Positions 31,050-50,751 of a stretch of 64,000 bases of DNA are shown piece by piece. Each line of letters starts with the position of its first letter. Within the stretch, counting starts at the first letter, position 1. This DNA comes from Minisyncoccota bacterium. GTDB taxonomy: Bacteria > Patescibacteriota > Minisyncoccia > JAHIHE01 > JAGLIN01. Position numbers and translations under genes: made by a program. The stretch is taken from NCBI GenBank assembly GCA_041661265.1, contig JBAZUT010000003.1, positions 143,191 through 207,190 on the forward strand, read 5' to 3'. The notes beneath the pieces were generated by a model. The model had not been told where the DNA came from. It did not search any database and saw nothing but the letters and a program-made list of their open reading frames with translations.

Positions 31050-31078
31050 TTGACTAAGTTGGGATATTGTGGTATAAT
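31050..31078 (+). promoter_or_regulatory. Near-consensus extended -10 sigma70 promoter for the giant gene
   Basis: TTGACT, a 17-bp spacer and TGgTATAAT. The TATAAT lies inside the ORF-track N-terminus (MWYN...), which argues that the true start is the ATG at 31112. Confidence 0.5.
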
Positions 31079-31111
31079 GAAAAGTCAATATTTACCCCTA
31101 AATTCAAATCT

Positions 31112-34100
31112 ATGGAATTTCGAGGAAATGAAGACCCTAAGAGTTCAGCTGAACAGCTAAAACGTTTTGAAACTGAAAAAGAAAAATTAGAAACCATATA
31201 TGATTATTTGATCAATGGCAAAGACAAAGAGGGAAACGAAATAACCACCAGGGAGGGCAAGAACAGGGCAAAACAAGATAAAAAAGAAATAAAAAGAAAC
31301 ATTACGGAGCTGACAAATAAAATTAATGTTATATCTGCAACTTTGGGCAAGCATCAGGAAGAAAGCTCAACTGATAAAAAAGAAATTGAAGAGCAGGGCG
31401 ACGACAAAGAAACTGGCGCAGAATATTTCGGAAGCAGCATGGAAGATATCAGCTTGGTTGCAAGCACGATATTGGGTGAAACAGATAAAACTGTTGAGAA
31501 ATTGGACTCCAGAGGATCACAAAATATTCAGAAACTGGAAAATGCCAAAGCAACTCAAAAAGAATTGGGTGAAGCGAAAAAGAATGAAGATCAAATCAGC
31601 AGCGAGAGTAAATCTGAAGCTGAAAAACTCAAGAGTAAGCTTTTAGAGCTGACATTTCCGGAAATGGTCGCGGTTGACGGTTTGGACAATCAACAACTGG
31701 AAAACAAATTAAATGAAGTTGAAAATTTTCTTAAAATAAACAAGATCGATGTTGCATTTGAAGAAGATCAGGAGATAAAGTCTGATGTTGAGAAGAAACT
31801 TTCAAAAGCAATGATTGCGATCGGCGCATACAGAAGGGATCTGCTTCAGAAAAAACTGGGTATCGGTGGGATTGGCGACGACACGAAAATGCCGCCGAGT
31901 GAAAAACTTGAAATTCCAAAGCATATCGACTTGGATTTGAAAAATAACGATAATCTTGAAGCACTAAAGCCAATCCTTGAAGAAGGCAACCACCATGAAA
32001 TTGTAGCGGAAATAATGAAAATTGCCGGACTTAAACCGGAAGAATTGCAAAATTTTGATTACCGGATCGAATCAAACAAGGATAAATCGACAGCAGAGAT
32101 AGTATTCAGCAAAAAAGATTCAATGGATAAAGAATTTACGATTGCAATTGACCTGAGCGGCGGAAAAATTGAAAAAATAACTGACGAAGACCGATTGCGC
32201 ATGTTCAATGAATTGACAGATCTCTTTGCCGAAAGAGGAGACCTGATCAAGCAAAGGAGTAACGCCAAAGACAAAGAAGAGATCCGGAGAATCGATGCGG
32301 ATCTTTCTGCGGTTAACTCCAAGCTTGATTCTTTATATAAAAAAATAGACAGGCCGGAAACAATAAGCGCGTTTGATGATTCCGAAAAAGATAAAATAAA
32401 AAAGATCGGAGAAATTCTAAGATCGGCAAGGGTTACCGACAGTTTTGACTATATGTCAGGAACAGGGTCTGCTGATCTCGTTGAAGATACCATCAGAAAA
32501 CGCGGAGGATTCAAACGTCCCGACGATCCCAAAAAAGAACAGCAAGCACCCCAAGAGAATATCAAAATCGGACAAACATATGAGTGCATTAATCCTTATT
32601 TTGATTTTTATAAAAAAGGTGATTATATCAGAATTGCGGAACGACAGAATAATCAGATCAGCCTGATTGAAGTTGACAGTGACGGCAAACAACTGAGCAG
32701 GTCAATCATTTCAGATAATGATTCAGAAATTGATGAATTTTTAAAATGTTTTAAGGAAATCGATCTTGAGCCTAACTCGAGCGTTAATAATAATGAAAAA
32801 ACTATGGAACAAATACCCATCGAACCTATTTCGGGCGCCGAATCTAACGATGATAACTTATCCATCGAACGTTTTGATTTTGAAAATATCAGCGATAAAG
32901 AAGATTTATCAAATCGCCTGTTTGAATTTGGAAAAAAACTCGAAGAAAGCAATCTGCGGACAGAACGCGAGATTTCAACAGATCTTTTGTTGTTTCTACA
33001 AAACAAAAGCTTGGGCCACTTGGAATCTGCAAAAATGCAAATCGACAAGTGCACAAACGAAAATGCAAAAAATAAACTGCAGGAACTCATTGTGAAATGC
33101 GAGGAGATCGTGAAAAATGAACCAAAACCGAAAGAAGACAATAAAGCGGAAAAAACAGAAACTGAAAAATTTGAAGATATAAGAAAGAAATGGAAATGGT
33201 ATGAAAGTGTAATAGATGGATGTGAAAATCACCCAGATTGGAATATTAAAAGAATAATAGAAAATCTTGAATATTTTACTTCTCATCCATTTTTTAAAGA
33301 AGATTTATTGGAATATGGGCTTGACCAGAATGAAAATAATCGTAAAACGGCAGAAAATATTAGAAATGAAGAATTGAATAAATCAATTAAGATGTTTGAG
33401 AAGTGGATAAGTGTTGAAGATGATTTTATGAAAAAAAGCGAAGAAATAAAAAAGACATATAACGAATCTTCTGGCAATAGAAAAAAGGAAGATATAATCA
33501 AATCCTTAAAAGAGAGTTTGGAAAATTTAGACAGCTCTGTTTTGGATGGCACCGAATTGGAAGATAATGACGAGAATAAAAAAACAGGTCTTGCAATTCA
33601 GTCAAATATTTTTAGAAAACTTTTAGAAGAGCTGGAAGGCAAAAAAGAAGAAATTGCAAAAGCGGAGCCAATAAAAGAAGGGGAAGAACAAAAGCAAAGC
33701 AAAGAACAGGAGAATGGAAGTCTTTTAGGCATAAAAATCAAGACAGCCGAGGATGTCGGAAAAATGACCAATGATGAGTTTATGAGCGCGGGAGGCGAAG
33801 CATTTGCAAAATACGAAGAGCTCGAATCCGGCAAAGATTTTGAAACACTGAAGACCACTGATGAGTTTTTGGTGTTTGCCGGATATCTGAATATTCTAAC
33901 CTCTGAACACGACAAGCGGACGAGGGAAGGAAGGATCGAAGTCAAGAAGCATAGGATCGCTTCCAACGAAGAAATTAACGCGCTTGATATGAAGAGCCTG
34001 CAGGAAGAACTGTCCAGAACTGAAATTTATCTGAATTACATAAAGACAAACAAAAGCCAGGAAGACTGGTTCAGTTCGGAGTTCAGTGACTATGGGCTAT

Positions 34101-36793
34101 ATCAGCAAAAACTTGAAAATAGGATAAACGAAATAAACGAAAATCCCAGCGCGAGACCTGCCGAAACTCCAAAGGAAACAACAAACGAAACAGCAGAGAT
34201 CGAAACAATGAGCGATGAAGATATCAAGAAAGAAACCGATACTGATGCTCTTCAGGAAAAGATCGACGAAACCATCGACTACCTGAAAAATACTGAAAAC
34301 ATATCCGAAGAAGACCATTCGAGGCTTTCCGTGTATATAGATAATCTGCAGATCAGGAAAAGCGAATTGGAAAAGATATTGATCAGCAAGGGATACAAAA
34401 AAATAAACGCGGGAATTAAGGATCTGAATAAAAACATGATACAGATCGAACGGACATCCGAAACACAAGAGATTGAAAACATCAAAAATGCAAAAACCGT
34501 AAAAGAGCTGAGCGATGGAATCAGGAATATCGAAGCCAAGGGCTTTGACGGAAAGGATATCGCCAACATCAAGAAACTGAAAGATGTCATGGAGAACATA
34601 TTCTCTCAAATTGCAGATGAGAAAGGCGGAAAGCTCAAGAATGACGTAAACTCGCCGGACTTCAGGAATATAGTAACCGATTCCGCCAAAGACGCTACGG
34701 CAAAATCGTATATCGTGGCGTTATTTGCAGCGATCGAAAATATCAGATCAGAACGCAGAATTGAATTAAACGTCGGAGATAAAATAAGAATGAAAGAAAA
34801 AGACGGACAGGTCCGCGATGGATGGATCGTGACAAAGATCGACGGCAAAAATGCCGAAGTTCAAAACGATAAAAACGGAGAGATTCTTGAAACGACCCTT
34901 GGCGAATTGGCCGGCTGGCAGGACGATAAGCTTATGGAAGAAGCAAAGAGAATAAAGGATAAAGAAGAAGAGATCAAGCTGAGAGAATATGAACTGCAGT
35001 TAAACGGCGGCGAAACAGAAAAGGACGAGAAACTGAATAAGCTGAAAAGCGAGCTGAAAGAATTAAAGGGAGTTAAGACCGGGAAAGATGAGAAAAAGGA
35101 AGGGCCTCAAACCTATGGGGAAATCGTTGAAAACATGAAAAAAATGGGAGAATTCCTTGAAAAAAGAAAAGTTGAACTTTCAAAGATCAATAGCGACGAA
35201 CAAATACAGAAGATCAAGGACAAGGTCAGCAGAGGCGAGAAATTGAGCGAAAAAGAAACCTCACAATACAAATCGATGTTCATGGCAAAAGACGAGGTTA
35301 CGATCTCCGAGATCGGCATATCTGCGATACAGAACGCAGACCTGTACAAGATCGACCTCCCATCCCTATCGCATGAGGAAGCAATGAAAGTTCTGGATCG
35401 GCGCATAAAAGCCAGTAAAGTGGATCTTTTTCTTCATGAGAAATTGAGAAGCTCCATTCGTTCCTGCAACGAAAAAATATCCCAGATGGATGAGGGAAGA
35501 CGTGGGGTATATGGCGCAATCGCAGACGGCATTTTGCGCGCCGCAAAACATATCCCGATCATAAAGAATTATACTTATCCGAATCTCGAAGCAAAAACAG
35601 AGCAGGAAAAGAAAAGAGAAGAAGGCATCAAAGAGGGAGCGACCGTGAGCATAAAAGAGAAAAAAGGTATAAGTGAAAAATGGAAGATCGTGAAAATCGA
35701 AGGTAATAAGGTTATCGTCGAAAAAGAGAACAGGGCCATGAAAGAATTCAAAGAAAAAGATCTGATGAAATGGAACAGCATAACCGAAAAAGGTAAATTC
35801 AAAAAAGGCGACAAGATTAGGGTCATGGTTGACGGCAAGATCGGAACTGATTGGGTCATCGAGAATGTCGAAGACAATAAGATCTTGGCTGCAAACGATA
35901 AAGCCAAAACGGAAAAAACGGTCAAAAAAGAAGATATCGTCAGCATTCAGGAAAAAGCCGCGGACAAGGAAAGCTTTAAGGATCTCCTGAGGGAACTGAA
36001 TGAGTTAAAAAGCAAGGATCTGGATATGACAAATATCAAAGATATGGCAAGTTTTGACAAGACATCAAAAGCATTGAAAACCAAATTCAATGAGATGTCG
36101 CAAAAAACGTCCTATTTTGAGGGTTTGGAAGATAAAGCGAAGAATGACATTGTGAATGTATTCAATATAGACCTTAATTGGTACAATGAATGCGTCAGAA
36201 AGAAAAAGACTGAAGAGAAAATGAAAGATAGGGAGCAGGACAAAAAAGGATTCAACGACAAAGTAGAGCAGCACAAAAATCTTATAAAAAGACTGCCGGA
36301 TGAACTGAAGGATTTCAAGGAAAGCCTTGAAAAGTTCATTGAATTTGCGAGCCAAACATATCATGAAACAAAATATTCAGACGAACCTGCCGACAATGAT
36401 AATGAGAAAGAAGAAAAGACTCTGCTGAAAAAGATGTTCACAGGAAAAGAGATCAGGGCGATCAAGGACAGTGAAGATGCTGATGAATTGATCGAGGCTG
36501 TTGAAAAATTTAAAACGGAGCTTAAACCTCAAATAAAGGATCATAAGGCCATAGAATCATGCTATTTGGTTTTGGACGATCTTGCCAACGACTCCAAGAG
36601 GAACAAAAATATAAGAAAATATACAAGAGATAAAATAAGGGACGAGATAGAAAAAATCGAAGATGACAATGCAAAGAAATACCTTAGAGCGGTTTTGGAG
36701 AAAATCGACGGACTGATCACGTCAAAAAAAGCTGCTGTTGGAGACAAGCCCAAGAAAACATCGAAAAACAAATCCAAAACGCGGAAAAAATAG
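31112..36793 (+). CDS. Giant (about 1,893 aa) charged coiled-coil protein with four KOW/SH3-like small beta modules
   Basis: Continuous ORF rich in K/E/D heptad-like segments. Four related modules of roughly 45 aa sit near 32570 (GDYIRIAERQNNQISLIEV), 34773 (GDKIRMKEKDGQVRDGWIVTKI), 35636 and 35815 (GDKIRVMVDGKIGTDWVIENV). Confidence 0.6.
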   Translation: MEFRGNEDPKSSAEQLKRFETEKEKLETIYDYLINGKDKEGNEITTREGKNRAKQDKKEIKRNITELTNKINVISATLGKHQEESSTDKKEIEEQGDDKETGAEYFGSSMEDISLVASTILGETDKTVEKLDSRGSQNIQKLENAKATQKELGEAKKNEDQISSESKSEAEKLKSKLLELTFPEMVAVDGLDNQQLENKLNEVENFLKINKIDVAFEEDQEIKSDVEKKLSKAMIAIGAYRRDLLQKKLGIGGIGDDTKMPPSEKLEIPKHIDLDLKNNDNLEALKPILEEGNHHEIVAEIMKIAGLKPEELQNFDYRIESNKDKSTAEIVFSKKDSMDKEFTIAIDLSGGKIEKITDEDRLRMFNELTDLFAERGDLIKQRSNAKDKEEIRRIDADLSAVNSKLDSLYKKIDRPETISAFDDSEKDKIKKIGEILRSARVTDSFDYMSGTGSADLVEDTIRKRGGFKRPDDPKKEQQAPQENIKIGQTYECINPYFDFYKKGDYIRIAERQNNQISLIEVDSDGKQLSRSIISDNDSEIDEFLKCFKEIDLEPNSSVNNNEKTMEQIPIEPISGAESNDDNLSIERFDFENISDKEDLSNRLFEFGKKLEESNLRTEREISTDLLLFLQNKSLGHLESAKMQIDKCTNENAKNKLQELIVKCEEIVKNEPKPKEDNKAEKTETEKFEDIRKKWKWYESVIDGCENHPDWNIKRIIENLEYFTSHPFFKEDLLEYGLDQNENNRKTAENIRNEELNKSIKMFEKWISVEDDFMKKSEEIKKTYNESSGNRKKEDIIKSLKESLENLDSSVLDGTELEDNDENKKTGLAIQSNIFRKLLEELEGKKEEIAKAEPIKEGEEQKQSKEQENGSLLGIKIKTAEDVGKMTNDEFMSAGGEAFAKYEELESGKDFETLKTTDEFLVFAGYLNILTSEHDKRTREGRIEVKKHRIASNEEINALDMKSLQEELSRTEIYLNYIKTNKSQEDWFSSEFSDYGLYQQKLENRINEINENPSARPAETPKETTNETAEIETMSDEDIKKETDTDALQEKIDETIDYLKNTENISEEDHSRLSVYIDNLQIRKSELEKILISKGYKKINAGIKDLNKNMIQIERTSETQEIENIKNAKTVKELSDGIRNIEAKGFDGKDIANIKKLKDVMENIFSQIADEKGGKLKNDVNSPDFRNIVTDSAKDATAKSYIVALFAAIENIRSERRIELNVGDKIRMKEKDGQVRDGWIVTKIDGKNAEVQNDKNGEILETTLGELAGWQDDKLMEEAKRIKDKEEEIKLREYELQLNGGETEKDEKLNKLKSELKELKGVKTGKDEKKEGPQTYGEIVENMKKMGEFLEKRKVELSKINSDEQIQKIKDKVSRGEKLSEKETSQYKSMFMAKDEVTISEIGISAIQNADLYKIDLPSLSHEEAMKVLDRRIKASKVDLFLHEKLRSSIRSCNEKISQMDEGRRGVYGAIADGILRAAKHIPIIKNYTYPNLEAKTEQEKKREEGIKEGATVSIKEKKGISEKWKIVKIEGNKVIVEKENRAMKEFKEKDLMKWNSITEKGKFKKGDKIRVMVDGKIGTDWVIENVEDNKILAANDKAKTEKTVKKEDIVSIQEKAADKESFKDLLRELNELKSKDLDMTNIKDMASFDKTSKALKTKFNEMSQKTSYFEGLEDKAKNDIVNVFNIDLNWYNECVRKKKTEEKMKDREQDKKGFNDKVEQHKNLIKRLPDELKDFKESLEKFIEFASQTYHETKYSDEPADNDNEKEEKTLLKKMFTGKEIRAIKDSEDADELIEAVEKFKTELKPQIKDHKAIESCYLVLDDLANDSKRNKNIRKYTRDKIRDEIEKIEDDNAKKYLRAVLEKIDGLITSKKAAVGDKPKKTSKNKSKTRKK

Positions 36794-36820: not shown

Positions 36821-37141
36821 ATGAAACTTATAGACGATAAAATGATCGAGGATATAATAGACTCCCTGGGCCTTCGGTTTCTTTCAGTCGAAAAAAGAAA
36901 TGAGATCTTGACTATGACGCTTGAACTTATCAGCAAGAGGGCCAGCATCAGAATAATTGAAAGCTTAAACGACGTCGAAGTCGGAGAGTTCAGCAACATC
37001 CCCAAAAATGAATTTGAAAAAATAGAAGATTTCCTCATTTTAAAGAATCCGAATGCAAAGACCATATTTGAAGAAGAACTTGCAAAGACCAAGAACGATA
37101 TTTTGAGTTCAAAGATTAACTTAAGCAACAATGAACAATAG
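36821..37141 (+). CDS. Hypothetical small protein
   Basis: 106-aa ORF lying between co-oriented genes. No motif was found. Confidence 0.35.
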   Translation: MKLIDDKMIEDIIDSLGLRFLSVEKRNEILTMTLELISKRASIRIIESLNDVEVGEFSNIPKNEFEKIEDFLILKNPNAKTIFEEELAKTKNDILSSKINLSNNEQ

Positions 37142-37313: not shown

Positions 37314-38954
37314 ATGGCAAAACCAGAGGATACTCTTGATGAAACGAATATTAATAAGAAGGAGGCGAAAGAGATCGGCGTCGAAAACGAATCAGGCGGG
37401 GAGGTTTTAGCTGTTGAGACCGAAAAAACGAGGGAAGAAACCGACATGGTTACAAGCGGCGAGAGCATGACCGAAAACAGAATTGCCGCCCTGGAAGCGG
37501 AAAGCGATCCAAAAGCAAGTGAATTTCGCGGCGAAGCGGAAACCATCCAAAATGATCGCAGATCCGCGGAATCAACTCGCGACATGGACTTAGATAGACT
37601 TGAAGAAACAAATGAAACCGGGCAGGAAGCTGAATCGATGGATGAAGCAACGATAAAAAAATTATTGACCACCCTTGATTCCGCAAAACTGGATGCCCCG
37701 GAAAAGAAGAGAGTGCTTGATAAATTGATCGCGTCATACGAGAAATTGTACGGCAGCGCGAATGAGGATGAAAGAACCGCGATATTCAAAGAAAATCCTA
37801 CTCTCCGGGAAATTGTCGGATTGATCAATAAGATAGATAACGACATAAAACAAGCAGGTCCGGGAAACGAGCATGACAATGAGCCTGACACGGAAGATGT
37901 GACCGATGAAACAAATGAGAGCCCTGAATCAGGAGCTGATCCGATCAAAGAAAAGATCAAAAACAATGAGATGCTTTCGGTCGAGGAAGAAAAGATCTTG
38001 TTTGATAAATGCGAGAAGATCATTTTAAAGCAAAGGAACGGAGAGGATATAAGCGAGGAAGAGGTCGCCATGGTCATGATGTACCAAGAAGCTGTCGGAA
38101 AGGGCCTTACAGCCAAAGGCGCGGAAGTAAATGAGTCGGTAGATAAAGACGTGGAAGAAATAAATGCATTCAATGAAAAAAGCAAGGAAGAGAAAGACAA
38201 GGATATCAACGAGAGGCTGGAAAAGATCAAAAGCTCGGGAATAGAACTTAGTGATAAAGCTGAAGATGCTGAGGAACATATCAAGGAACTGGAAAAACAG
38301 CTCAAAGACAGATATGACGAATTTACAAAGATGGAAGAAGATATAGAAAAGATCAGAAATACCGAAGGCGTTGACCAGGAGGGTGCGAGAACATTAAAAA
38401 ACACCATTTCTTCACTGAAAAATATATATACGGACAAGCTGCACATAGAATATTATGAATATTGGATCAAATACCTCAAGGGAGGAGTGGAATCCCTGCA
38501 TGACTCCCATGCAAAACATAATATTTCCATGAATCAGCTGGAGACGCTTGGCGGGGACCTTGAAAGCGACCTTGCAAGCATAGAAAAAGGCGAATCGGAA
38601 GTACTTGCGAAATGGGCACAGTTTATAAAAGATCATCCAAAAACTGGACTTGCGCTTATTACCGCCGCCTTAGCCGCCGGAATCTTACTATCTCCATATC
38701 TTGTAAAATTTCTCGGCGCGCCGGAAATTGCAAAGCTTGGCACGGGAGCATTGGCTCCGCTGATGAAGCCGACTATAGCGTTGGGCGCAAAAGCAGTCGG
38801 AAGTCTGGCGTCGATATCAGGTTCCGTGGGTCTCGCAGGCATATTTCTTTTGCTGACGAACAGCGAAAAGATCGATGATGCCATGGAATCGATCTGGGGG
38901 AAGAAGATCCCCAATTGGGCCTCCTGGGGCCTAAAGAAGAAAGGCCAGAAGTAA
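37314..38954 (+). CDS. Acidic coiled-coil protein with a C-terminal multi-helix membrane anchor
   Basis: 546 aa. A D/E-rich body is followed by a hydrophobic C-terminus LALITAALAAGILL...GSVGLAGIFLLL. Confidence 0.5.
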   Translation: MAKPEDTLDETNINKKEAKEIGVENESGGEVLAVETEKTREETDMVTSGESMTENRIAALEAESDPKASEFRGEAETIQNDRRSAESTRDMDLDRLEETNETGQEAESMDEATIKKLLTTLDSAKLDAPEKKRVLDKLIASYEKLYGSANEDERTAIFKENPTLREIVGLINKIDNDIKQAGPGNEHDNEPDTEDVTDETNESPESGADPIKEKIKNNEMLSVEEEKILFDKCEKIILKQRNGEDISEEEVAMVMMYQEAVGKGLTAKGAEVNESVDKDVEEINAFNEKSKEEKDKDINERLEKIKSSGIELSDKAEDAEEHIKELEKQLKDRYDEFTKMEEDIEKIRNTEGVDQEGARTLKNTISSLKNIYTDKLHIEYYEYWIKYLKGGVESLHDSHAKHNISMNQLETLGGDLESDLASIEKGESEVLAKWAQFIKDHPKTGLALITAALAAGILLSPYLVKFLGAPEIAKLGTGALAPLMKPTIALGAKAVGSLASISGSVGLAGIFLLLTNSEKIDDAMESIWGKKIPNWASWGLKKKGQK

Positions 38955-38997: not shown

Positions 38998-39429
38998 ATG
39001 ACCGAAACAAATCACGAAATGAGCATCAAATCAGAGATCGAGCTTTTGGAAAAGCAATTGCAGGAAAAAAAACAGGCTCTTGAAAAAGGTCCTGCCGGAA
39101 AAAAGGAAGCTGAAATATCGAAAGAAAACGTGAACGAGGCTGAATTGTCAAACGTTCAGACCGCTACGCAAGCGCAGACAAAACCCGCGCTTACGAGCGA
39201 CGAGGACAAAACTGCCGAGATCAGCACGGACATAAGCAAAATAAAGGACCTTGATGTTTCGCGTCAGGTCAAGATCCTAACGACGTTGGCTTTTGAAAAA
39301 GGGATCCAATATAGCATAAAAGTCGCGCGCGGACTGAACAGCCCGTATCTTCTTGATGAACTTCATGATAAACTGGTGGGAGAACTTCACGACGAACTCG
39401 TAAAAAAAGGAAAATTGAAAGAAATATGA
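38998..39429 (+). CDS. Hypothetical coiled-coil protein
   Basis: 143-aa ORF co-oriented with its neighbours. Confidence 0.4.
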   Translation: MTETNHEMSIKSEIELLEKQLQEKKQALEKGPAGKKEAEISKENVNEAELSNVQTATQAQTKPALTSDEDKTAEISTDISKIKDLDVSRQVKILTTLAFEKGIQYSIKVARGLNSPYLLDELHDKLVGELHDELVKKGKLKEI

Positions 39430-39462: not shown

Positions 39463-41928
39463 ATGGAAATCGATTTTATTGATCTGGTCATTACAGTCGG
39501 CATTTTTGATTTTGCCGTGTTGTTTTTTGTTTTTTTTATTTTTTGTTTTTTTGTCTACTTTATCTCAAACTTGAAAAGCTCGGGACAGCTTTCGCGCTCG
39601 CTGAATATGACCGTTCTCCGGATCGCTGTGCCGAAAAACAACCAAAAAGAACAGAAAGAAACAGGCGAAGCGGAAAAGGAAAGTATTTCCATAATGGAAC
39701 ATCTTTTCGCAAGCTTGAGCAATATCAGGGAAGAGTCTATGAAGAAGCTGATCTATGGCCCATTTTATCTTTCTTTCGAGATATCTACGCCGATAGACAG
39801 CAATGAAATTTTTTTCTATGTTTCATGCCCGAAAAAGTTCCAGTCGATAATCGAAAAACAGATACATAGCTTTTATTCAGACGCGGAGATCAAAAAGATC
39901 GACGACTACAATTCATTCGTTCCCAACGGAAAAAGCGCAGGATGCTATTTGAAACTCAAAAAAACCACCGCATTCCCTCTGAAAACATACAGAAGACTCG
40001 AAGCCGATCCGATCTCAAGCATAACCAATGCGCTCAGCAAGATCCCTGTCGGAAAAGGCGCAGCCATACAGATCATAATCAAACCGACAGATAATCTCTG
40101 GCACCAGGAAAGCACTGAGCTCATCAAAGAAATGCAAAAGGGCAGAGGATTCGGCGGAAAAAAACAATCTTCGACCGTAAAAGCGATCGGCGAATTTGCA
40201 AAGATCGCTGCCGGAACAGACTCAAAGAAGGATGAAAAGAAAAAGCAGGAAGAACTTCAGATAAAACTTACATCTTCTCAGGAAGAAACGATGAAAGCCG
40301 TTTCCGAGAAAGCGACTAAGGTCGGATTTATGACCAATATACGGATAGTCACATCAGCTCCTACGCTTGAAGAAGCAAAAATGACGCTGAACGAGATTGA
40401 GAATTCATTCACTCAATTCGGTTCACCGGACCTCAACTCATTCGAGATCAGCGAGCTTGTGGGGGGAAGTCTCAATCAGGCAATATATAATTTTATATTC
40501 AGAAATTTCGACAAGTCGCGGAAGATCATCCTCAACACGGAAGAGCTTGCCAGCATATATCATTTCCCGATCATGTCGACACAGACCCCTCAGGTCAATT
40601 GGCTGAAATCAAAACAGGCGCCGGCGCCGAACAATATCGTCGAAAAGGGATTGATATTGGGGCACAATACATACAGAGGGATCGACACGATCATAAAGAT
40701 CGGACGCGAAGACAGAAGAAGGCACATGTACGTCATCGGACAGACCGGAACCGGAAAGTCGGCTTTCCTCGGCGAACTCATTAAGCAGGATATAAAAAAT
40801 GGCGACGGCATATGTCTTATAGACCCGCATGGCGATCTTGTTGAAGAGGCACTGGGTTCGGTTCCAAAAGACAGAGCTGAGGACGTCGTGCTTTTCGATC
40901 CGTCAAACATGCAGAAGCCGATGGGGTTGAACCTTCTTGAATATGATCCGAATTATCCCGAGCAAAAGACGTTTGTCATCAATGAAATGATCAAGATCTT
41001 CGATAAATTATATGATCTGAAATCCACAGGCGGACCGATGTTCGAGCAATATATGAGAAATGCGATGCTTCTTATCATGGAAGATCCCGCCTCAGGATCC
41101 ACGCTGATCGAAATCTCAAAAGTTCTTGCGGATGCGGAGTTCAGAAAATATAAATTATCGAAATGCAAGAATTATGTCGTCAAGAATTTCTGGCAAAAAG
41201 AAGCTGAAAAGGCCGGCGGGGAAGCGGCTCTTGCGAATATGGTACCCTACATCACAAGCAAGCTGACACAATTCATATCCAACGACACAATGCGACCGAT
41301 CATCGGCCAGCAGAAAAGCTCCATAAATTTCAGAGAAATAATGGATAATCGCAAGATCCTTCTTGTGAACCTTTCAAAGGGAAGGATCGGAGAAATGAAC
41401 GCATATCTTTTGGGACTTGTTATTGTCGGAAAAATACTGGTTTCATCGCTCAGCAGAACCGACATGCCGCAGGAAGAAAGAAAAGATTTCTATCTATATA
41501 TCGACGAGTTCCAGAATTTCACAACCGACAGCATTTCAACCATACTTTCTGAAGCGAGAAAATATCGATTGTGCCTCAACATAGCGCATCAATTCCTCGG
41601 CCAGCTTCCCGAAGAGATCCAAAAGTCCGTATTCGGAAACGTCGGAAGCATAATCTCTTTCAGGATCGGCCCCGAGGACGCCGAATTTATGACAAAACAA
41701 TTCATGCCCGTATTTGATGAACAGGACCTTATCAACATCGACAACTACAACGCCTACGTAAAACTTATGATATCGGGAACCATAAGCAGGGGATTTAATA
41801 TGGCCACATTCCCGCCGCTCAAGACAAATCTCGAGATCGCAAGCGCAATTAAAGAGCTTTCTTCACTTAAATATGGCCGTGATAGAGAAGTTATCGAACG
41901 CGAGATAATACAAAGAACGCTGATCTAG
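39463..41928 (+). CDS. VirD4/TrwB/TraG-family type IV coupling-protein-like P-loop ATPase with an N-terminal TM anchor
   Basis: N-terminal TM helix (VITVGIFDFAVLFFVFFIFCFFVYF). The Walker A block MYVIGQTGTGKSAFLGELIKQDIKNGDGICLIDPHGDLVEE is colinear with the TrwB block ATGTGKSVLLRELAYTGLLRGDRMVIVDPNGD. The Walker B is YLYIDEFQNF (TrwB has FIDELASL). Total length is 821 aa. Confidence 0.65.
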   Translation: MEIDFIDLVITVGIFDFAVLFFVFFIFCFFVYFISNLKSSGQLSRSLNMTVLRIAVPKNNQKEQKETGEAEKESISIMEHLFASLSNIREESMKKLIYGPFYLSFEISTPIDSNEIFFYVSCPKKFQSIIEKQIHSFYSDAEIKKIDDYNSFVPNGKSAGCYLKLKKTTAFPLKTYRRLEADPISSITNALSKIPVGKGAAIQIIIKPTDNLWHQESTELIKEMQKGRGFGGKKQSSTVKAIGEFAKIAAGTDSKKDEKKKQEELQIKLTSSQEETMKAVSEKATKVGFMTNIRIVTSAPTLEEAKMTLNEIENSFTQFGSPDLNSFEISELVGGSLNQAIYNFIFRNFDKSRKIILNTEELASIYHFPIMSTQTPQVNWLKSKQAPAPNNIVEKGLILGHNTYRGIDTIIKIGREDRRRHMYVIGQTGTGKSAFLGELIKQDIKNGDGICLIDPHGDLVEEALGSVPKDRAEDVVLFDPSNMQKPMGLNLLEYDPNYPEQKTFVINEMIKIFDKLYDLKSTGGPMFEQYMRNAMLLIMEDPASGSTLIEISKVLADAEFRKYKLSKCKNYVVKNFWQKEAEKAGGEAALANMVPYITSKLTQFISNDTMRPIIGQQKSSINFREIMDNRKILLVNLSKGRIGEMNAYLLGLVIVGKILVSSLSRTDMPQEERKDFYLYIDEFQNFTTDSISTILSEARKYRLCLNIAHQFLGQLPEEIQKSVFGNVGSIISFRIGPEDAEFMTKQFMPVFDEQDLINIDNYNAYVKLMISGTISRGFNMATFPPLKTNLEIASAIKELSSLKYGRDREVIEREIIQRTLI

Positions 41929-42098: not shown

Positions 42099-42180
42099 AT
42101 TTCACTATCACACCCAATAAGCCGTTTTAAAGGCCGGGTATTGCCAATTTGGCTGGAATTGATATAATGTTCTAGTATCT

Positions 42181-42253
42181 GCGGGTGTCGTATAACGGCT
42201 TATTATGCTAGCCTTCCAAGCTGGAGACGTGGGTTCGACTCCCATCACCCGCT
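42181..42253 (+). tRNA. tRNA-Gly (anticodon TCC)
   Basis: GCGGGTG acceptor stem, anticodon stem CTAGC/GCTGG with loop CTTCCAA, T-arm GTGGG-TTCGACT-CCCAT, and discriminator U. Confidence 0.75.
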
Positions 42254-42285
42254 CATCGATAATGAAAAATGCAGCATAAAAAAAC

Positions 42286-44268
42286 TTGATGATATTAAAA
42301 CAAAATATTTACGCGGTCAAGAAAAAAACAAAACAACTAAAATCGTTTTATGCGTTTATGTTGTTTTTTTGTGCCTTTTTCATTTATTCACCTTTTATAT
42401 TTTCCGGATACGCAAAAGCTGACACGCTTAATGACAAAGTTAATTTCCTCGTCGATTCTTCATATGACTCGAATAACCGGTCGAATATCGATACGACACT
42501 GAGAAAGATCAGCAATTACGCTTTTTTTTATGTCGAAAACGAATATTACGATTCCCTTGGATATGCCGAACAGGTTAAATTCGATTCCGACCTTGAAAAT
42601 CTTGCTTCCAGTTTTGATAACACGATATATCCCAGAATGCGCAATATCTTCGGGGATGAATGGAGTCCCGGAATTGACAACATGGAACACATCACAATAC
42701 TTTTCACAAAAACAAAAGAGAATGTCGGCGGTTATTTCAATCCCAACGACGAGTATCCGAAATCAAATGTCGTCGATGACAAAAGCAATGAGAGAGAAAT
42801 GCTCTATCTGAACGCAATTTTTGCAGGCAATGACAGGATAGAAAGTTTTATAGCCCATGAATTTCAGCACATGATAACGTGGTATCATAAAACTAAACTT
42901 AGAAATATCAATGACGACATCTGGCTGAACGAATCCAGATCGGAATATGCATCGACCGCGATAGGATATGATGACGACTATCAGAAAAGCAATCTTCGCG
43001 CCAGAGTCGAGAATTTCATGCAAAATCAGACTGACTCGCTTACGGAATGGCAGAACAAGATCCAGGATTATTCTTCCGTAAATCTCTTTTCTCAATACCT
43101 CGCCGATCATTTCGGAGGCGACACCTTCAGGACTATGATAGGCAATGATACTGCCGGCATCGAAAGCATAAATAAGGCGCTCAGCGAAAATGGCTTCACG
43201 AGCAGTGTTTTTTCCGATATTTTTTCGAATTGGAGCGTGGCCAATTATCTGAACAACAGATATTATCTTGACGGAAAATATGGATACATTAATCCAAATC
43301 TTACATATGACAATTTCCATCTGGCACCGACAAAGACCTATTTTATCGGCAACGACGATATTCCCGTCAGCATATCAGCTTCCATTAAAGACTGGAGTTC
43401 GAGATATTTTGAAATAAAACCGGCCAATAACCTGACGGGCTTGAATATCGAGATAAGCTTTAACGGCGATAATTCGGGTAAATTTGCTGTTCCATATGCG
43501 CTCATGTCCGGAGATGCGGTTGTTTCCGTGAGTAAAGCTATTCTTGACAGGAATCAGGATAATAAAATACTGGTCAAAAACTTCGGAACAGATATCACTT
43601 CCGTCATATTGATGCCGAATAGCCAGAAAAAAACAGAGGGATTCGGGAGCGAGATAGAATCATATTCATTTTCCATTTCCGTTAAGACGATCATCGGAGA
43701 ACTATACCCCGACGGCACAATTCTAAAATCATACAAAAATCCTGAAGTATATCTGATCGAGGACGGAAAGAAGAGGTGGATCACGAGCGCTGCGGCTTTT
43801 ATTTCAAACGGATACAGCTGGAATAACATAACCTATATAAATTCTAACGAACTCGACTTTTTTGAAAGAGGAGAAAATATTTATGCAAAAGACCTGAAAC
43901 CCGACGGCACTCTCATTAAGGGCAGCGGACCGGAGGTTTATATTGTTGAAAACGGAATGAAAAGATGGATAACGACAGCCGGAGTTTTCGTGTCGAGGGG
44001 CTATAAATGGGAAAACATCATAACTGTGTCGGAAAACGAACTCGGTTCATATACAGAAGGTCAGGATATATCTTTCCAGAATCTGAAACCCGACGGCACT
44101 CTCATTAAGGGCAGCGGACCGGAGGTTTATATTGTTGAAAACGGAATGAAAAGATGGATAACGACAGCCGGAGTTTTCGTGTCGAGGGGCTATAAATGGG
44201 AAGAGATCGTCGTGATCCCGGACATAGACTTGAACTCTTATGCGGACGGATTGGATATAGACAGATGA
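42286..44268 (+). CDS. Secreted protein with an HExxH (zincin-like) motif and three C-terminal repeats of about 63 aa
   Basis: Signal/TM helix LKSFYAFMLFFCAFFIYSPFIF. An AHEFQHM motif is present. The three C-terminal repeats (YPDGTILK...VYLIEDGKKRWITS...GYSWNNI) are related to those of the downstream hydrolase. Confidence 0.55.
   Translation: MMILKQNIYAVKKKTKQLKSFYAFMLFFCAFFIYSPFIFSGYAKADTLNDKVNFLVDSSYDSNNRSNIDTTLRKISNYAFFYVENEYYDSLGYAEQVKFDSDLENLASSFDNTIYPRMRNIFGDEWSPGIDNMEHITILFTKTKENVGGYFNPNDEYPKSNVVDDKSNEREMLYLNAIFAGNDRIESFIAHEFQHMITWYHKTKLRNINDDIWLNESRSEYASTAIGYDDDYQKSNLRARVENFMQNQTDSLTEWQNKIQDYSSVNLFSQYLADHFGGDTFRTMIGNDTAGIESINKALSENGFTSSVFSDIFSNWSVANYLNNRYYLDGKYGYINPNLTYDNFHLAPTKTYFIGNDDIPVSISASIKDWSSRYFEIKPANNLTGLNIEISFNGDNSGKFAVPYALMSGDAVVSVSKAILDRNQDNKILVKNFGTDITSVILMPNSQKKTEGFGSEIESYSFSISVKTIIGELYPDGTILKSYKNPEVYLIEDGKKRWITSAAAFISNGYSWNNITYINSNELDFFERGENIYAKDLKPDGTLIKGSGPEVYIVENGMKRWITTAGVFVSRGYKWENIITVSENELGSYTEGQDISFQNLKPDGTLIKGSGPEVYIVENGMKRWITTAGVFVSRGYKWEEIVVIPDIDLNSYADGLDIDR
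43894..44202 (+). repeat. Two 120-nt stretches identical at the nucleotide level (period 189 nt) within the CDS, indicating a recent tandem duplication
   Basis: CTGAAACCCGACGGCACTCTCATTAAGGGCAGCGGACCGGAGGTTTATATTG...GGCTATAAATGGGAA occurs at 43894-44013 and again at 44083-44202. Confidence 0.8.
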
Positions 44269-44354
44269 TCACAAAAGCGGCTTGTTTCTGATGAGCTGTT
44301 TTTTTTATCGATAGCGCCAAACGGAACAATATGCTATAATGTGGTCATAGAAAT

Positions 44355-47300
44355 ATGATTATTACAAAATTAAATTCAAAGAAATTACCCTATTCTGCTA
44401 TTTTATTCCTAGCAGTATTTTTTGCCTTGTTCGAAAACATCGCATATGCATCGAATTCTATCGCGCCTGAAATAATACCCCGATCCGTCTGGGGAGGAAG
44501 CAAAACGACCCCGGATTGGCCAGTTGAATACGGCAATGCGGAAAAATTCGTAATTCACCACACCGCCAGCTCCACTCTCACTCCCGATGCGGACGGAAGC
44601 GGTAAATACACCGACATGGTGGAAAGCATATTCGATTATCACAGCGAAAAAAAAACCTGGTATGACGATGATGGGGAGTATGTCGGATTCGGAGATATAG
44701 GATACAACTACATCATAGATCCGAATGGGAATATTTATGAAGGCCGAGCCGGCGGGAACGGGAGCACCGGCGGACACGTGAAAGGATTCAATGTCGGCAG
44801 CATCGGCATTTCCGTTCTCGGAAGGTATCAAGGATATCTCAATTCCAAGAACGAGAACGTACCATCCCACCCCGTCACGGATTCGATCCTGGATTCTCTG
44901 AAAAATCTGATCGGCTGGCTTGCTTCTGCGAATAACATAGACCTGAACGCTACGACGGAATTCCATGGAAAAAATATAGACGGGATCGTCGGACACAGGG
45001 ACCTTTCGGCAACGATATGCCCGGGAAATGACCTTTATTCAAAACTCAGCGAGATACAGAATTCTGCCGTCATCAAAAAGACGGAATTCGACAAATACGC
45101 CTATCAGATTCCGGGCGACCGGTCGATATACGTCATCGACGAAGGCTATAAGCTGAAATTTAACTCGTTAGGGGAGCTTCCAAGCGGACACAGGAACAAA
45201 AATGTCATAGCCGCTTCCGAAGCTCAATTGGACCTTTTCAGATATAAGGATTCAACGATATATCCCGATGGATCGCTATTGCAGGAATTCGGTTCTAATG
45301 CGGTTTATTATATCGACAAACAGGAGAAAAGACATCTGAATATGAAAGGCGAAGAGTTTTCAAAAATGGGATTCGATAATTCCAAGATCATATACGTTTT
45401 TAAAAGCGATCTGAATATTTACAAAGAGGGGAAAAACATCAAATACGGACCGGACGGAAAATTGGTCAAAGACGCAAGTTCGAAAGTATACCTTATTCAG
45501 AGCGGAAAGAAAAGAGGATTCACCTCGGCAAAGCTTTTCGAGTTCCTCGGATATAGATGGAAGAATATCGAACTAGATGAAAACATCGGTCTTTATCTTG
45601 ATGGAGGCGATATGCTGTATCCGGACAAATCCCTGGTCAAAACCGCCGCCAGTCCCAATGTCTATTTCATTGAAAATAAGCAGAAAAGAAAAATAACCTC
45701 GGATACCCTGTTCAATAAGCTGGGATACAAGACAAAAAATGTGATCACGATCGAAGATGTCGAACTCTCCCATTTTCCGAGCGCAAAAAATATGACATAC
45801 CCCGACGGCACGCTCCTACAGCAAGAGAACAGGCCTTCGGTTTATCTCGTCGCAAATGGCAGTGTCAGGATATTTCCTTCAGCTGAATTATTCCTGAAAC
45901 TCGGATATAAATGGAAGAACGTGACCGCGATCAAGGCAGATGAGTTCAAGAATTATTCCTATGCAGGAAGGGTCCTGCAACCAAATGGGACATTGATCAG
46001 ACCATTGGACGGATCGGACATTTATCTTGTCGACAATGGCACAAAGAGAAAGATATCTTCGGCTTTAATGTTCGAAAAGCTCGGATACAAATGGAACAGC
46101 GTACTCCCGCTTCCACCGGACCAGATCAATGAATATCCTTCCGGAGAGAATTTAAAGTATCCGGATGGAACATTGATCAAAAAGGAAGGATCCGGGATCA
46201 TTTACAGAATCGACGGCGGGAAGATCAGGGAATTCACATCCCAAACGCTTTTCGAAAAGACCGGAAGCAAGTGGACGGATGTCGTGACTCTTCCGGCCAA
46301 TGAATTTGCAGCGTATGCATATGGCGGGATCGTAATGTATCCGAATAAGACTTTGCTCCGGGAAAAGGGAAAGGATGCCATCTATGTCATAAAAGATCAA
46401 AAAGCTTTGGGCATTAAAAGCCTGGCTGAATTCAATAAAGCCGGATATAAATGGAAGGATGTGATTGATCTGCCGAAAGAAGAAATAACCCTGATGATTG
46501 ATCCGGGCAAGGCGTTCCAGAGGGATGCAACACCGCAATACATTCCGGCCAAATCTCCGGCTAAAAGCGCGGATGCATTGACCAGCCAGGAAAAAACCGA
46601 GCCTCCCGCGTCGAACACTTCCGCCAACAAACCGGTTAATCCCGACATAAAGATAGCAATATACTCGATCACGGAAGGAAGTGTAAGGATGACGGCCAAC
46701 GGACCGTATAAAGTGGATCATATGAACGGAGACGGTACTATCCAGAAAACGGAAAAAAGATCCGCGAACGAGCAGACCGAAATAGCATATTTCAATTCCG
46801 CGTCCTATGTAAAATTCACCCCATCAAGCAAAGATACAGTGCTTGAGGTCGTGTCGTATAACGATCCATCCTGGAACAATGCCGTGAATGATAACAGATT
46901 CAGAGGTAATATTATAATCAAATACTCGGATATTTCCGATAAGCTATGGATCGTAAATGAGCTTCCTCTGGAAGATTACGTTAATGGAATAGCCGAAACT
47001 ACGAGCGAAAGCCATAACGAATATCTCAAGGCGTTCAGTATAATTGCAAGAACTTATGCAATGTATTATATTGAAAGGGGAGGCAAGCACATCGGAGAAC
47101 CTTTCCACCTGAAGAACAGCAGAAATGGAAATGGCAATGATCAGTCATATAAGGGATATAATTTCGAGATAAGAGCCGATAAGATAGTTTTGGCAAGCAG
47201 AGAAACTGCGGGAAAAATAATAACCTTTAACGGAAAACCGATTGTAGCGGCGTATTCATCGGATTCGGGCGGCGTTACAAAAAGCGCCTGTGATGTTCTG

Positions 47301-47510
47301 AGCAAAACTTATTGCAACAGCGACTTTTCCTATCTTTCCGGCGGCGCCAATGATCCAGATGGAACCGTTCACGACCGGAACAAGATGGCATCGAGTCATG
47401 GAGCCGGTATGAGTGCGGTGGGAGCCCTCAAGATGGCAGAAAACGGCACCTCCTTGCAGAACATGATCGCGCACTATTACCCTGGAGTTGAAATTATTAA
47501 ATATTATTGA
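44355..47510 (+). CDS. Secreted multidomain peptidoglycan hydrolase: PGRP/Amidase_2, about ten 60-aa repeats, and a SpoIID/LytB domain
   Basis: Signal peptide, then the Amidase_2 core (FVIHHTAS...GYNYIIDPNGNIYEGRAGG...ATICPGN). About ten tandem repeats follow (YPDG[ST]L[IL]..VY[LY]IxNGxKRxIxSxxxFxxLGYKWxNV). The C-terminal SpoIID signature is LEDYVNGIAE...ARTYAMYY...YSSDSGGVT. Confidence 0.75.
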   Translation: MIITKLNSKKLPYSAILFLAVFFALFENIAYASNSIAPEIIPRSVWGGSKTTPDWPVEYGNAEKFVIHHTASSTLTPDADGSGKYTDMVESIFDYHSEKKTWYDDDGEYVGFGDIGYNYIIDPNGNIYEGRAGGNGSTGGHVKGFNVGSIGISVLGRYQGYLNSKNENVPSHPVTDSILDSLKNLIGWLASANNIDLNATTEFHGKNIDGIVGHRDLSATICPGNDLYSKLSEIQNSAVIKKTEFDKYAYQIPGDRSIYVIDEGYKLKFNSLGELPSGHRNKNVIAASEAQLDLFRYKDSTIYPDGSLLQEFGSNAVYYIDKQEKRHLNMKGEEFSKMGFDNSKIIYVFKSDLNIYKEGKNIKYGPDGKLVKDASSKVYLIQSGKKRGFTSAKLFEFLGYRWKNIELDENIGLYLDGGDMLYPDKSLVKTAASPNVYFIENKQKRKITSDTLFNKLGYKTKNVITIEDVELSHFPSAKNMTYPDGTLLQQENRPSVYLVANGSVRIFPSAELFLKLGYKWKNVTAIKADEFKNYSYAGRVLQPNGTLIRPLDGSDIYLVDNGTKRKISSALMFEKLGYKWNSVLPLPPDQINEYPSGENLKYPDGTLIKKEGSGIIYRIDGGKIREFTSQTLFEKTGSKWTDVVTLPANEFAAYAYGGIVMYPNKTLLREKGKDAIYVIKDQKALGIKSLAEFNKAGYKWKDVIDLPKEEITLMIDPGKAFQRDATPQYIPAKSPAKSADALTSQEKTEPPASNTSANKPVNPDIKIAIYSITEGSVRMTANGPYKVDHMNGDGTIQKTEKRSANEQTEIAYFNSASYVKFTPSSKDTVLEVVSYNDPSWNNAVNDNRFRGNIIIKYSDISDKLWIVNELPLEDYVNGIAETTSESHNEYLKAFSIIARTYAMYYIERGGKHIGEPFHLKNSRNGNGNDQSYKGYNFEIRADKIVLASRETAGKIITFNGKPIVAAYSSDSGGVTKSACDVLSKTYCNSDFSYLSGGANDPDGTVHDRNKMASSHGAGMSAVGALKMAENGTSLQNMIAHYYPGVEIIKYY

Positions 47511-47517
47511 TAGTTCA

Positions 47518-47859
47518 ATGGAGCTGAACAAAAAAATATATTTTTCACTGATCGTATTTGCGATCAGTATTGCACAAGAGACCAATGCCACTCTGTCGAC
47601 ATTCGATTTTACTTCTCCAATTGAAAAAACTGACGTCAAAATCATATTGACTGACTTTCTTAAATGGCTGCTTACCGTGGTAGGATCATTCGCTTTTTTA
47701 GCGCTGATCATAGCAGGTATTTCATATATGACATCGATGGGCAATGTTGAAAAGGCTAAAAAGGCGAAAAAATCCGTGCTGTGGATAATCGGCGGACTAG
47801 TATTAATCCTGCTGTCATACTCCATTCTCGTAGTACTGGACAGTATTTTTACCGGTTAA
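47518..47859 (+). CDS. VirB2/TrbC-like pilin-type small protein, paralog 1
   Basis: Signal peptide, then two hydrophobic helices separated by a basic loop: FLKWLLTVVGSFAFLALIIAGISYMTSMGNVEKAKKAKKSVLWIIGGLVLILLSYSILVVL. The start was moved to the ATG at 47518 because 47488 overlaps the upstream gene. Confidence 0.5.
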   Translation: MELNKKIYFSLIVFAISIAQETNATLSTFDFTSPIEKTDVKIILTDFLKWLLTVVGSFAFLALIIAGISYMTSMGNVEKAKKAKKSVLWIIGGLVLILLSYSILVVLDSIFTG

Positions 47860-47877
47860 AAGCAAAATAAATTTAAT

Positions 47878-48216
47878 ATGAGATCAATTACGCATAGGAT
47901 CATATTCGTACTTTTGGTTTTTAGCATCATCGGCGCAGACAATGCACATTGCTTAACCACAACCTATAAACTTCCTCCGACAACATCAACAACGGATTTT
48001 CAGATGTTGCTGGTTAATTTATTACACTGGATGCTTTCCGTGATCGGTCCGATCGCATTGATAATGCTTATCATAGCAGGGATGATGCATATAACATCAG
48101 CAGGAGATCCTCAGAAGGCGGCTTCAGCAAAAAAAGTCTATATGGCCATGGCAGGCCTGATCATTGCGTTATTATCCTATTCAATGCTCGTATTATTAAA
48201 TAATATGTTTACATAA
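47878..48216 (+). CDS. VirB2/TrbC-like pilin-type small protein, paralog 2
   Basis: Same architecture as paralog 1: LLHWMLSVIGPIALIMLIIAGMMHITSAGDPQKAASAKK...LLSYSMLVLL. Confidence 0.5.
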   Translation: MRSITHRIIFVLLVFSIIGADNAHCLTTTYKLPPTTSTTDFQMLLVNLLHWMLSVIGPIALIMLIIAGMMHITSAGDPQKAASAKKVYMAMAGLIIALLSYSMLVLLNNMFT

Positions 48217-48224
48217 TATAAATT

Positions 48225-48584
48225 ATGACAAAAACAAATAACATTATGATTTCTTTAATTTGTCGCATTCTTCCGACGCTTTCAATATTCGCGCTTGTAA
48301 ATACCGCTAATGCAGCAACAACGACCTATAAAGTGACAAACCCGATAGCCACAAGCGATTTTGCAAAAATAGTGGCTAATTTTTTGAAATGGTTTCTTTC
48401 CGTAGCCGGAGCCATTGCGATGATAATGCTTATAGTAGCAGGCATCATGTATATGGGTTCAGCAGGAAATCCTCAGAAGGCGGCTTCAGCGAAAAAAATG
48501 GTGATGATAACACTAGGCGGACTGATATTATCGCTTTTATCATATTCGATCCTGGTAATACTTGATAATATTTTTACAAAATAA
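48225..48584 (+). CDS. VirB2/TrbC-like pilin-type small protein, paralog 3
   Basis: FLKWFLSVAGAIAMIMLIVAGIMYMGSAGNPQKAASAKK...LLSYSILVIL. The 31-nt stretch CAGGAAATCCTCAGAAGGCGGCTTCAGCGAA is shared almost exactly with paralog 2. Confidence 0.5.
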   Translation: MTKTNNIMISLICRILPTLSIFALVNTANAATTTYKVTNPIATSDFAKIVANFLKWFLSVAGAIAMIMLIVAGIMYMGSAGNPQKAASAKKMVMITLGGLILSLLSYSILVILDNIFTK

Positions 48585-48587
48585 CAT

Positions 48588-48953
48588 ATGACAACGATTG
48601 AAAGAAAGGGCGTAAAACTAATTTCCTTCTCCATATATTATTATGCATTTCTGATGGTCTTTCTCATTCAAAAGAAAGCTGAGGCTGCGTCGACGATCAC
48701 GGCAGTCACAAGAAAAATAAAAGTCAGCGACTTTGTGCATCTTATTGAAAACGTTTTTAAGTGGTCGCTCTCCGTTGCGGGAGGAATAGCGCTCATCATG
48801 CTCATAATCGGAGGCATCACATACATGACATCAACCGGAAATGAGCAGAAAGCCATGCAGGCAAAGAAAACATTTTATTGGGCGCTGGGCGGACTCATGC
48901 TACTGATCCTTGCGTATGGAATAGGTTTCGTCATATACGGAATATTCTTTTAA
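48588..48953 (+). CDS. VirB2/TrbC-like pilin-type small protein, paralog 4 (most divergent)
   Basis: FKWSLSVAGGIALIMLIIGGITYMTSTGNEQKAMQAKK...LAYGIGFVIYGIFF. Confidence 0.45.
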   Translation: MTTIERKGVKLISFSIYYYAFLMVFLIQKKAEAASTITAVTRKIKVSDFVHLIENVFKWSLSVAGGIALIMLIIGGITYMTSTGNEQKAMQAKKTFYWALGGLMLLILAYGIGFVIYGIFF

Positions 48954-49876: not shown

Positions 49877-49935
49877 TCTGAATGCAAAAAAAGACGGCTA
49901 AGAGTCCGGCTTTTTTAATTCTGTCTTATTTCCCG

Positions 49936-50730: not shown

Positions 50731-50751
50731 AAGCTTTTATTAATGATAAAT

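Follow-up and report, generated by a model that had tools for sequence, protein, structure and literature searches.

In 2025, Quinonero-Coronel et al. surveyed the Patescibacteria and recovered 5,713 VirD4-type homologues from 2,918 of 3,035 genomes (PMC12102498). The same survey found almost no relaxases and raised exaptation of the type IV coupling protein (T4CP) genes as a possibility (PMC12102498). In 'Ca. Southlakia epibionticum' ML1, Wang et al. described a type IV secretion system (T4SS) without a recognisable coupling protein; its VirB4 is a separate gene, SEML1_0008, in an essential cluster (SEML1_0006-0019) beside dnaA (PMC10633639). Here, we describe a membrane-anchored ATPase of 821 amino acids (aa) encoded at positions 39463-41928 (+) of a 64,000-nucleotide stretch of a Minisyncoccota bacterium genome (contig JBAZUT010000003.1, positions 143,191 to 207,190), which at its full length is referred to as the window. 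Given the survey counts, the core of what a first-pass annotation had noticed at this locus, a coupling-type ATPase with no adjacent VirB4, is an already published, phylum-wide pattern. The survey shows the same pattern as ours but lacks the N-terminal domain, the conserved operon and the two paralogous lineages discussed below. Neither DUF8128 nor DUF5663 turned up in any paper of our literature search, nor did a description of a VirB4-like N-terminal domain on patescibacterial T4CP-like proteins. What appears to be new is the domain architecture and its fold, together with the operon and the connection to essentiality.

The open reading frame (ORF) is genuine, running from ATG to stop over 821 codons, and its product is laid out as a transmembrane (TM) helix, then a VirB4-type N-terminal domain (N-domain), then a coupling-type motor. 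By our reading the helix lies at aa ~8-35 (39484-39567, +), within a hydropathy segment of aa 1-40; the AlphaFold2 model has a helix at 14-47. Hydropathy and sequence place acidic residues before the helix and K/R residues after it, from which an N-out/C-in orientation is predicted, with the bulk of the ATPase in the cytoplasm. The N-domain (aa 44-396; 39592-40650, +) corresponds to Pfam DUF8128 and has the fold of the TrwK/VirB4 N-terminal domain. The remainder (40651-41928, +) forms a T4CP-like P-loop motor, interrupted at aa ~498-615 by an all-helical insertion and closed by a helical tail at the C-terminus. Its Walker A motif, GQTGTGKS (aa 426-433; 40738-40761, +), is invariant from G426 to K432 and nearly so at S433 among 60 homologues, and D681, E682, F683, Q684 and N685 of the Walker B motif, YIDEFQNF (aa 679-686; 41497-41520, +), are likewise invariant among 60 homologues. 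Because K432, D681 and E682 do not vary, the ATPase looks active.

Is the motor that of a coupling protein? A phmmer search of PDB sequences returned TrwB (1e9r, 1gl6; E 8e-6) over a short stretch, aa 413-462, and a 60-sequence family profile reached TrwB at 2e-7 and DotL at 4.5e-4. These matches, short as they are, bear out the earlier claim that the Walker A neighbourhood resembles that of TrwB/VirD4. In the Pfam scan, the motor (aa ~397-790) matched DUF87 at 5.8e-10. The Pfam coupling-protein families that had been proposed as a check gave a divided answer: TrwB_AAD_bind passes its cut-off with a match considered below, TraG-D_C (5.8e-4, score 20.2) falls just under its cut-off of 22, and T4SS-DNA_transf is unmatched. 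The best NCBIfam match is VirD4-like CD1115 (5e-11, aa 398-741), which at 42 bits lies far from the equivalog cut-off of 250, and TraD models come next. Relatives match T4SS-DNA_transf, TrwB_AAD_bind and TraG-D_C more strongly than the target does and pass the cut-offs of T4SS-DNA_transf and TraG-D_C; a Pfam match to the part containing the all-alpha domain of T4CPs is seen in these relatives only. FtsK_SpoIIIE, CagE_TrbE_VirB, AAA_10 and the VirB4/TraC/TcpF models gave no match in Pfam or NCBIfam, and the HerA combination of a HAS-barrel N-domain, a HerA motor and a NurA partner was not found. With the motor domain as query, tblastn against plasmids retrieved 262 records at 26-34% identity covering ~90% of the domain, annotated as T4SS DNA-binding, TraM-recognition or DUF87 proteins. 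The target has, then, a P-loop domain with both Walker motifs and sequence kinship to T4CPs.

It does not have the T4CP arrangement of a TM anchor directly before the motor. Unlike VirD4, TrwB, TraD and DotL, it carries an extra, VirB4-like domain of 350 aa ahead of the motor, which brings Walker A to aa 426. It also differs from T4CPs in its single TM helix, its chromosomal location, its high conservation and the lack of a relaxase or an adjacent T4SS. The first-pass annotation had held that the Walker B motif and the N-terminal anchor fit coupling-protein architecture; both features are there, but the domain between TM helix and motor is not part of that architecture.

The lists of N-domain matches contain neither the VirB4 C-terminal domain alone, nor T4CPs, nor HerA, which identifies the N-terminal domain of VirB4 as the part matched; a domain of VirB4 type is present at the N-terminus. 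Alignment of the family against TrwK by hhalign covered the P-loop alone, at 10.8% probability and opposite TrwK residues 446-479 of 823; a sequence-level link between the N-domain and TrwK was rejected on this result, and the likeness of the N-domain to TrwK is therefore structural only. Against TrwB, hhalign set the P-loop opposite residues 116-177 of 507. A further candidate, the N-terminal region of P0246, a distant relative aligned to the target over the motor only, was also rejected, as hhalign matched it to the N-domain through the linker EELASxFHFP only. In overall length and in the position of Walker A, at aa ~430, the target is similar to TrwK/VirB4 (aa ~450 of 823) and unlike TrwB (aa ~130). 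The earlier interpretation is supported in part; it had missed the Walker A position. The target differs from the TrwK/VirB4 family in carrying its own TM helix. Its C-terminal ATPase matches none of the AAA_10, P-loop_TraG, TIGR VirB4/TraC and TcpF profiles, and its neighbours are not VirB3, VirB6 or VirB8; they are soluble and acidic, with DUF5663 the sole family assigned.

At the level of sequence, the N-domain has relatives on Bacillus and haloarchaeal plasmids. A 913-aa 'DUF87' protein of Bacillus subtilis plasmid NRS6116_2 (NZ_OX419581.1) aligns to target aa 94-814 at 25% identity (E 2e-42), a full-length homology that includes the N-domain but begins without the TM region of the target. 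Immediately after its gene comes a relaxase-like gene annotated as 'replication-relaxation family', with TcpD, TcpE and an 854-aa TcpF/VirB4 (AAA_10 8e-85; NCBIfam TcpF 7.5e-124) behind it; the target shows no significant similarity to that TcpF (E 0.52). No second coupling protein is annotated on NRS6116_2. On Halorussus limi plasmid NZ_CP096663.1 (L091, 10539-14682), a 376-aa DUF8128-like ORF overlaps the start of the ATPase gene, and the pair clusters with a pilin and a second ATPase of 1092 aa ('TraM recognition'); this pair is a split form of the target architecture in an archaeal T4SS-like module. Both sets of homologues differ from the target in being plasmid-borne within T4SS- or conjugation-like modules and in lacking the DUF5663 and 143-aa partners described below. 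Co-encoding with a relaxase and/or a T4SS, as expected of a T4CP, is therefore seen in the distant plasmid homologues but not in the target. Within T4SS modules of monoderms and archaea, these plasmid contexts put the family in the position of the coupling protein and not in that of VirB4. The closest plasmid homologue of the motor, at 34% identity, has an unrelated N-terminal region and is found on Bradyrhizobium sp. 131 plasmid p131_1 (L005, 7053-9179), among CHAT-domain and TPR genes with no T4SS there, in what looks like a conflict-system context. This motor type thus serves outside T4SSs too.

How widespread is the family? With sequences clustered at 90% identity, over 5,200 clusters matched the target; an exhaustive search at 50% identity yielded 5,848 clusters (E<1e-30). 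The best 120 matches are 54-93% identical over nearly their full length, apart from one, P0001, that is 100% identical over 94% of the length; named sources among these 120 are Paceibacteria/Parcubacteria, Moranbacteria or Patescibacteria. P0001 and 119 relatives carry the precomputed families PF26449, PF10412 and PF01935, and the target fits a patescibacterial DUF8128 + DUF87 family of ~820 aa in which a PF26449 N-domain precedes a DUF87/TrwB-like P-loop domain. A scan of species-representative genomes found at least 552 relatives. The 80 loci kept from it are mostly titled as Patescibacteria groups (Parcubacteria/Paceibacterota, Moraniibacteriota), and we read the Bdellovibrionales, Micavibrio and Bathyarchaeia titles among them as mislabelled bins. 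The family is very large in Patescibacteria and apparently vertically inherited. The target is a new architectural variant of T4CP-like ATPase, from a huge family that goes under DUF labels only. Some longer relatives (P0157, P0172, P0174 and P0307) have disordered tails of ~200-1200 aa, rich in P, A, S or Q, which terminate in a conserved motif, GE[IV][FY][IV]D..G, that does not occur in the window; the names of close relatives of these tailed members point to Saccharimonadia and Microgenomates.

Two T4CP-like genes of 'Ca. S. epibionticum' appear in Tables S1 and S2 of Wang et al. (PMC10633639). SEML1_0142, a member of the Patescibacteria-enriched core families, encodes 1019 aa with a 'TraM recognition domain' and a P-loop domain at aa 381-800, and is scored ES/ES/ES by transposon sequencing at P0/P1/P2; SEML1_0293 encodes 921 aa with PF10412, PF12696 and PF01935 and is scored NE/NE/NE (PMC10633639). 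In front of SEML1_0142, by 12 bp, lies SEML1_0141 (139 aa; GD/ES/ES, with zero insertions from T0 to T2), and SEML1_0140 (117 aa) is scored NE/GD/GD (PMC10633639). The connection to our family comes from P0307, a saccharibacterial DUF8128 protein of 1036 aa that shares 40% identity with the target across aa 21-818. Its neighbours, in the order YifB (-), a small gene, the ATPase, a 193-aa gene (-), a CLIPPER/DUF11 gene (-), GyrB and GyrA, reproduce the arrangement from SEML1_0138 to SEML1_0146, including an identical 193-aa gene. On this shared synteny we assign SEML1_0142 to the family as a likely member, which would make the family probably essential in S. epibionticum, the one species in which this has been tested. 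SEML1_0142 differs from the target in its 1019-aa length and in a disordered C-terminal tail that the target lacks. The 2025 survey calls the S. epibionticum t4cp non-essential (PMC12102498), which fits SEML1_0293 and not SEML1_0142, so that two paralogues have likely been mixed up in the literature.

The ATPase gene travels with two small genes, as judged from neighbourhood counts over 83 related loci. In 78 of the 83, the next gene upstream, in the same orientation, is a homologue of the 143-aa gene (38998-39429, +), whose product is an acidic, soluble protein of no known family; the median gap is 51 bp. DUF5663, represented here by an acidic protein of 106 aa (36821-37141, +), is encoded upstream in 65 of them, 582 bp away at the median and usually adjoining the 143-aa gene on its upstream side. 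Sequence searches of Pfam, NCBIfam and PDB gave no informative match for either the 143-aa family or DUF5663. Between the two genes of the window lies a lineage-specific insert with homologues in five loci only, encoding an acidic protein of 546 aa (37314-38954, +) that is coiled-coil-like by eye and has two C-terminal TM segments.

Downstream of the ATPase, by 5.5 kb, are four tandem genes for VirB2-like T4SS pilins (PF18895/TrbC; 47488-48953, +) of 112-123 aa and 38-54% pairwise identity, which the first-pass annotation had overlooked. From 0.4 kb downstream, the intervening stretch (42286-47510, +) is taken up by two genes, both encoding proteins with a hydrophobic segment at the N-terminus. 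The first (42286-44268, +) encodes 660 aa with a zincin-like HEFQH motif at aa 191 and C-terminal repeats common to the next gene; the second (44355-47510, +) encodes a wall hydrolase of 1051 aa composed of Amidase_2, repeats and SpoIID/LytB. This hydrolase is a possible VirB1 analogue for the pilin array. Both genes are linked to the ATPase in close relatives only, in 6-8 of the 83 loci (8 for the Amidase_2/SpoIID hydrolase). Between the ATPase operon and the hydrolase and pilin genes stands a tRNA-Gly(TCC) gene (42181-42254, +), preceded by a promoter-like site (42141-42168, +) that matches the consensus at 11 of 12 positions, by consensus match only; coming right after the ATPase, this tRNA gene and its site suggest that the hydrolases and pilins are transcribed as a unit of their own. 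VirB2-like pilin arrays are known in Patescibacteria (PMC12102498); usually they lie near virB4, and none is present in this window. VirB4 and relaxase profiles matched none of the scanned window ORFs of at least 100 aa, nor was either protein found in the 10 kb to the left of the window, leaving 74 kb without VirB4 in all. The earlier claim that no VirB4 or relaxase adjoins the ATPase therefore holds over this range.

What, then, does the ATPase do? The reading we favour, and to which we give about even credence, is that it is a coupling-type ATPase feeding substrate to a relaxase-less, pilin-bearing patescibacterial T4SS encoded elsewhere in the genome. The single N-terminal TM helix anchors the protein, and the remainder should face the cytoplasm. 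In the published R388 structure, the N-terminal domain of VirB4 reportedly docks that ATPase onto VirB3 and the tails of VirB8 at the inner membrane. By extension, the N-domain may dock the target to inner-membrane T4SS components, and the ATPase would assemble there as an ATP-driven ring, as T4CPs, VirB4 and FtsK do. The DUF5663 and 143-aa proteins could present substrate as adaptors or regulators, by analogy with IcmS/IcmW or CagZ, and the ring would then pass this substrate into the T4SS channel. The cargo is more likely protein than relaxase-piloted DNA. The family would, on these grounds, be the coupling ATPase reported as unrecognisable in the T4SS of S. epibionticum.

Several observations weigh against feeding a T4SS in this way. 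Pilins lie near the ATPase in only 4 of the 83 loci, making linkage to T4SS genes rare, and the conserved operon partners carry no T4SS identity. A search for a second VirB4- or T4CP-like ATPase within 10 kb on either side of the 83 loci found none, barring two cases: one locus has an incomplete second copy of 472 aa where its contig starts, and another has a fragment of 59 aa. Across the phylum, only 148 of the 5,713 T4CP homologues lie near virB4, and the homologues occur in 2,918 genomes as against 2,417 for VirB4 (PMC12102498). Within the motor itself, the TrwB_AAD_bind match (4e-6; 26.3 against a cut-off of 20.5) spans only 47 residues of the P-loop region, and the AlphaFold2 model is of moderate confidence, with pLDDT (predicted local distance difference test) values of 42-56 at aa 680-770. 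The sequence conservation of the ATPase looks high for a coupling protein, in our judgement. Finally, SEML1_0142 is the likely counterpart of the target by synteny through P0307 and not by its own sequence, and the small gene upstream in Saccharibacteria (123 aa) has no detectable homology to the 143-aa family.

Much of this would be accommodated by the main rival explanation, which we find doubtful: that the ATPase and its operon partners are an exapted, essential machine working independently of any T4SS, in protein export or remodelling or in the handling of DNA at the membrane. The conserved operon of its own, the near absence of adjoining T4SS genes, the excess of genomes with T4CP homologues over those with VirB4, the high conservation and the essentiality of the likely counterpart all speak for such autonomy, as do the exaptation raised in the 2025 survey itself (PMC12102498) and the Bradyrhizobium p131_1 motor homologue among CHAT/TPR genes with no T4SS. 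Against it, the operon conserves no channel-forming partner, the lineage-specific 546-aa protein alone having TM segments; the VirB4-type N-domain and the plasmid homologues indicate a T4SS setting; and the genomes without VirB4 could reflect incompleteness of metagenome-assembled genomes.

The TrwK-like length, Walker A position and N-domain fold, together with pilins and wall hydrolases nearby and no VirB4 in 74 kb, could also be taken to mean that the target is the functional equivalent of VirB4, a combined ATPase that assembles the pilins encoded 5.5 kb downstream. We consider this improbable. The pilins seldom adjoin the ATPase in the related loci, the tRNA gene and its promoter-like site split the two gene sets, and VirB4 sequence profiles do not match the target; moreover, S. 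epibionticum has a separate, essential VirB4 (SEML1_0008) besides SEML1_0142, and most Patescibacteria genomes have a true VirB4 (PMC12102498).

Still less probable is an FtsK-like role in chromosome segregation or cell division. Of the 47 loci whose flanks are long enough, 28 carry an FtsQ gene in the same orientation ~8 kb upstream; the protein is a member of the FtsK-HerA superfamily, and its likely counterpart is an essential gene. However, the target matches none of FtsK_SpoIIIE, Ftsk_gamma and FtsK_4TM and has one TM helix, TM7x also has an annotated ftsK, and the DUF8128 gene of S. epibionticum is not near FtsQ. Replacement of FtsK was rejected, since S. epibionticum possesses a canonical essential FtsK, SEML1_0096 (PMC10633639), and the proximity to FtsQ is lineage-specific. 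That the ATPase is the ordinary coupling protein of an integrated conjugative element, for which its T4CP-like motor and a tyrosine recombinase gene (Phage_integrase; 61727-62617, -) might be cited, has a negligible chance and is effectively refuted by the housekeeping flanks with synteny kept across classes, the uniform GC content and the lack of a relaxase or VirB4 in the window, the recombinase lying 20 kb downstream, past an aminoacyl-tRNA synthetase and other core genes, with no sign that it bounds a mobile element containing the ATPase.

The same-strand run that ends in the ATPase gene is headed by a K/E-rich protein of 1908 aa and ~40% charged residues (31067-36793, +). The best promoter-like site ahead of the run from this gene to the ATPase (31050-31078, +) is TG-extended and matches the consensus at 11 of 12 positions, again a consensus match only; translation of the gene probably begins not at the listed TTG but at an ATG 15 codons further downstream. 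The protein lacks both a TM segment and a signal-peptide-like N-terminus and matches nothing in Pfam or NCBIfam, and jackhmmer found no homologue of it in the 83 related loci. Large, fast-evolving ORFs of 715-1136 aa occupy its position in three inspected relatives. We considered whether the protein is a split-off version of the disordered tail of Saccharimonadia, and rejected this on the missing terminal motif and the lack of a jackhmmer homologue. The rest of the window is housekeeping in content, with aminoacyl-tRNA synthetases, a Mur ligase, FemAB, FtsQ, ParAB, PFOR and GreA. One of the synthetases, a class II enzyme of 695 aa (20260-22347, +), joins tRNA-synt_2 and an OB anticodon-binding domain to a C-terminal HD-domain extension. 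A 295-aa ORF (49882-50769, +) antisense to a LigB/Memo-family gene (49936-50730, -) is almost certainly spurious, and further long antisense ORFs in K/E-rich genes look like artefacts.

A bolder reading, which we hold to be unlikely, is that the DUF8128 ATPases are a distinct third lineage beside VirB4 and VirD4, in which a coupling-type motor retains the docking domain of VirB4 type; the lineage would be a surviving intermediate of the split between the two or else an ancient fusion. Its patescibacterial members would have turned into a core machine, essential and passed on vertically, that with its two small adaptors selects and energises the cargo of the epibiont's T4SS or acts as a self-sufficient single-ATPase translocon. 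The DUF8128 ATPases in any case bear on the kinship of the two T4SS ATPase families. As a coupling-type ATPase, the family is a concrete candidate for the missing coupling ATPase of the patescibacterial T4SS, nearly universal in the phylum and probably essential, and its two conserved small partners are usable as handles for fishing out the substrates.

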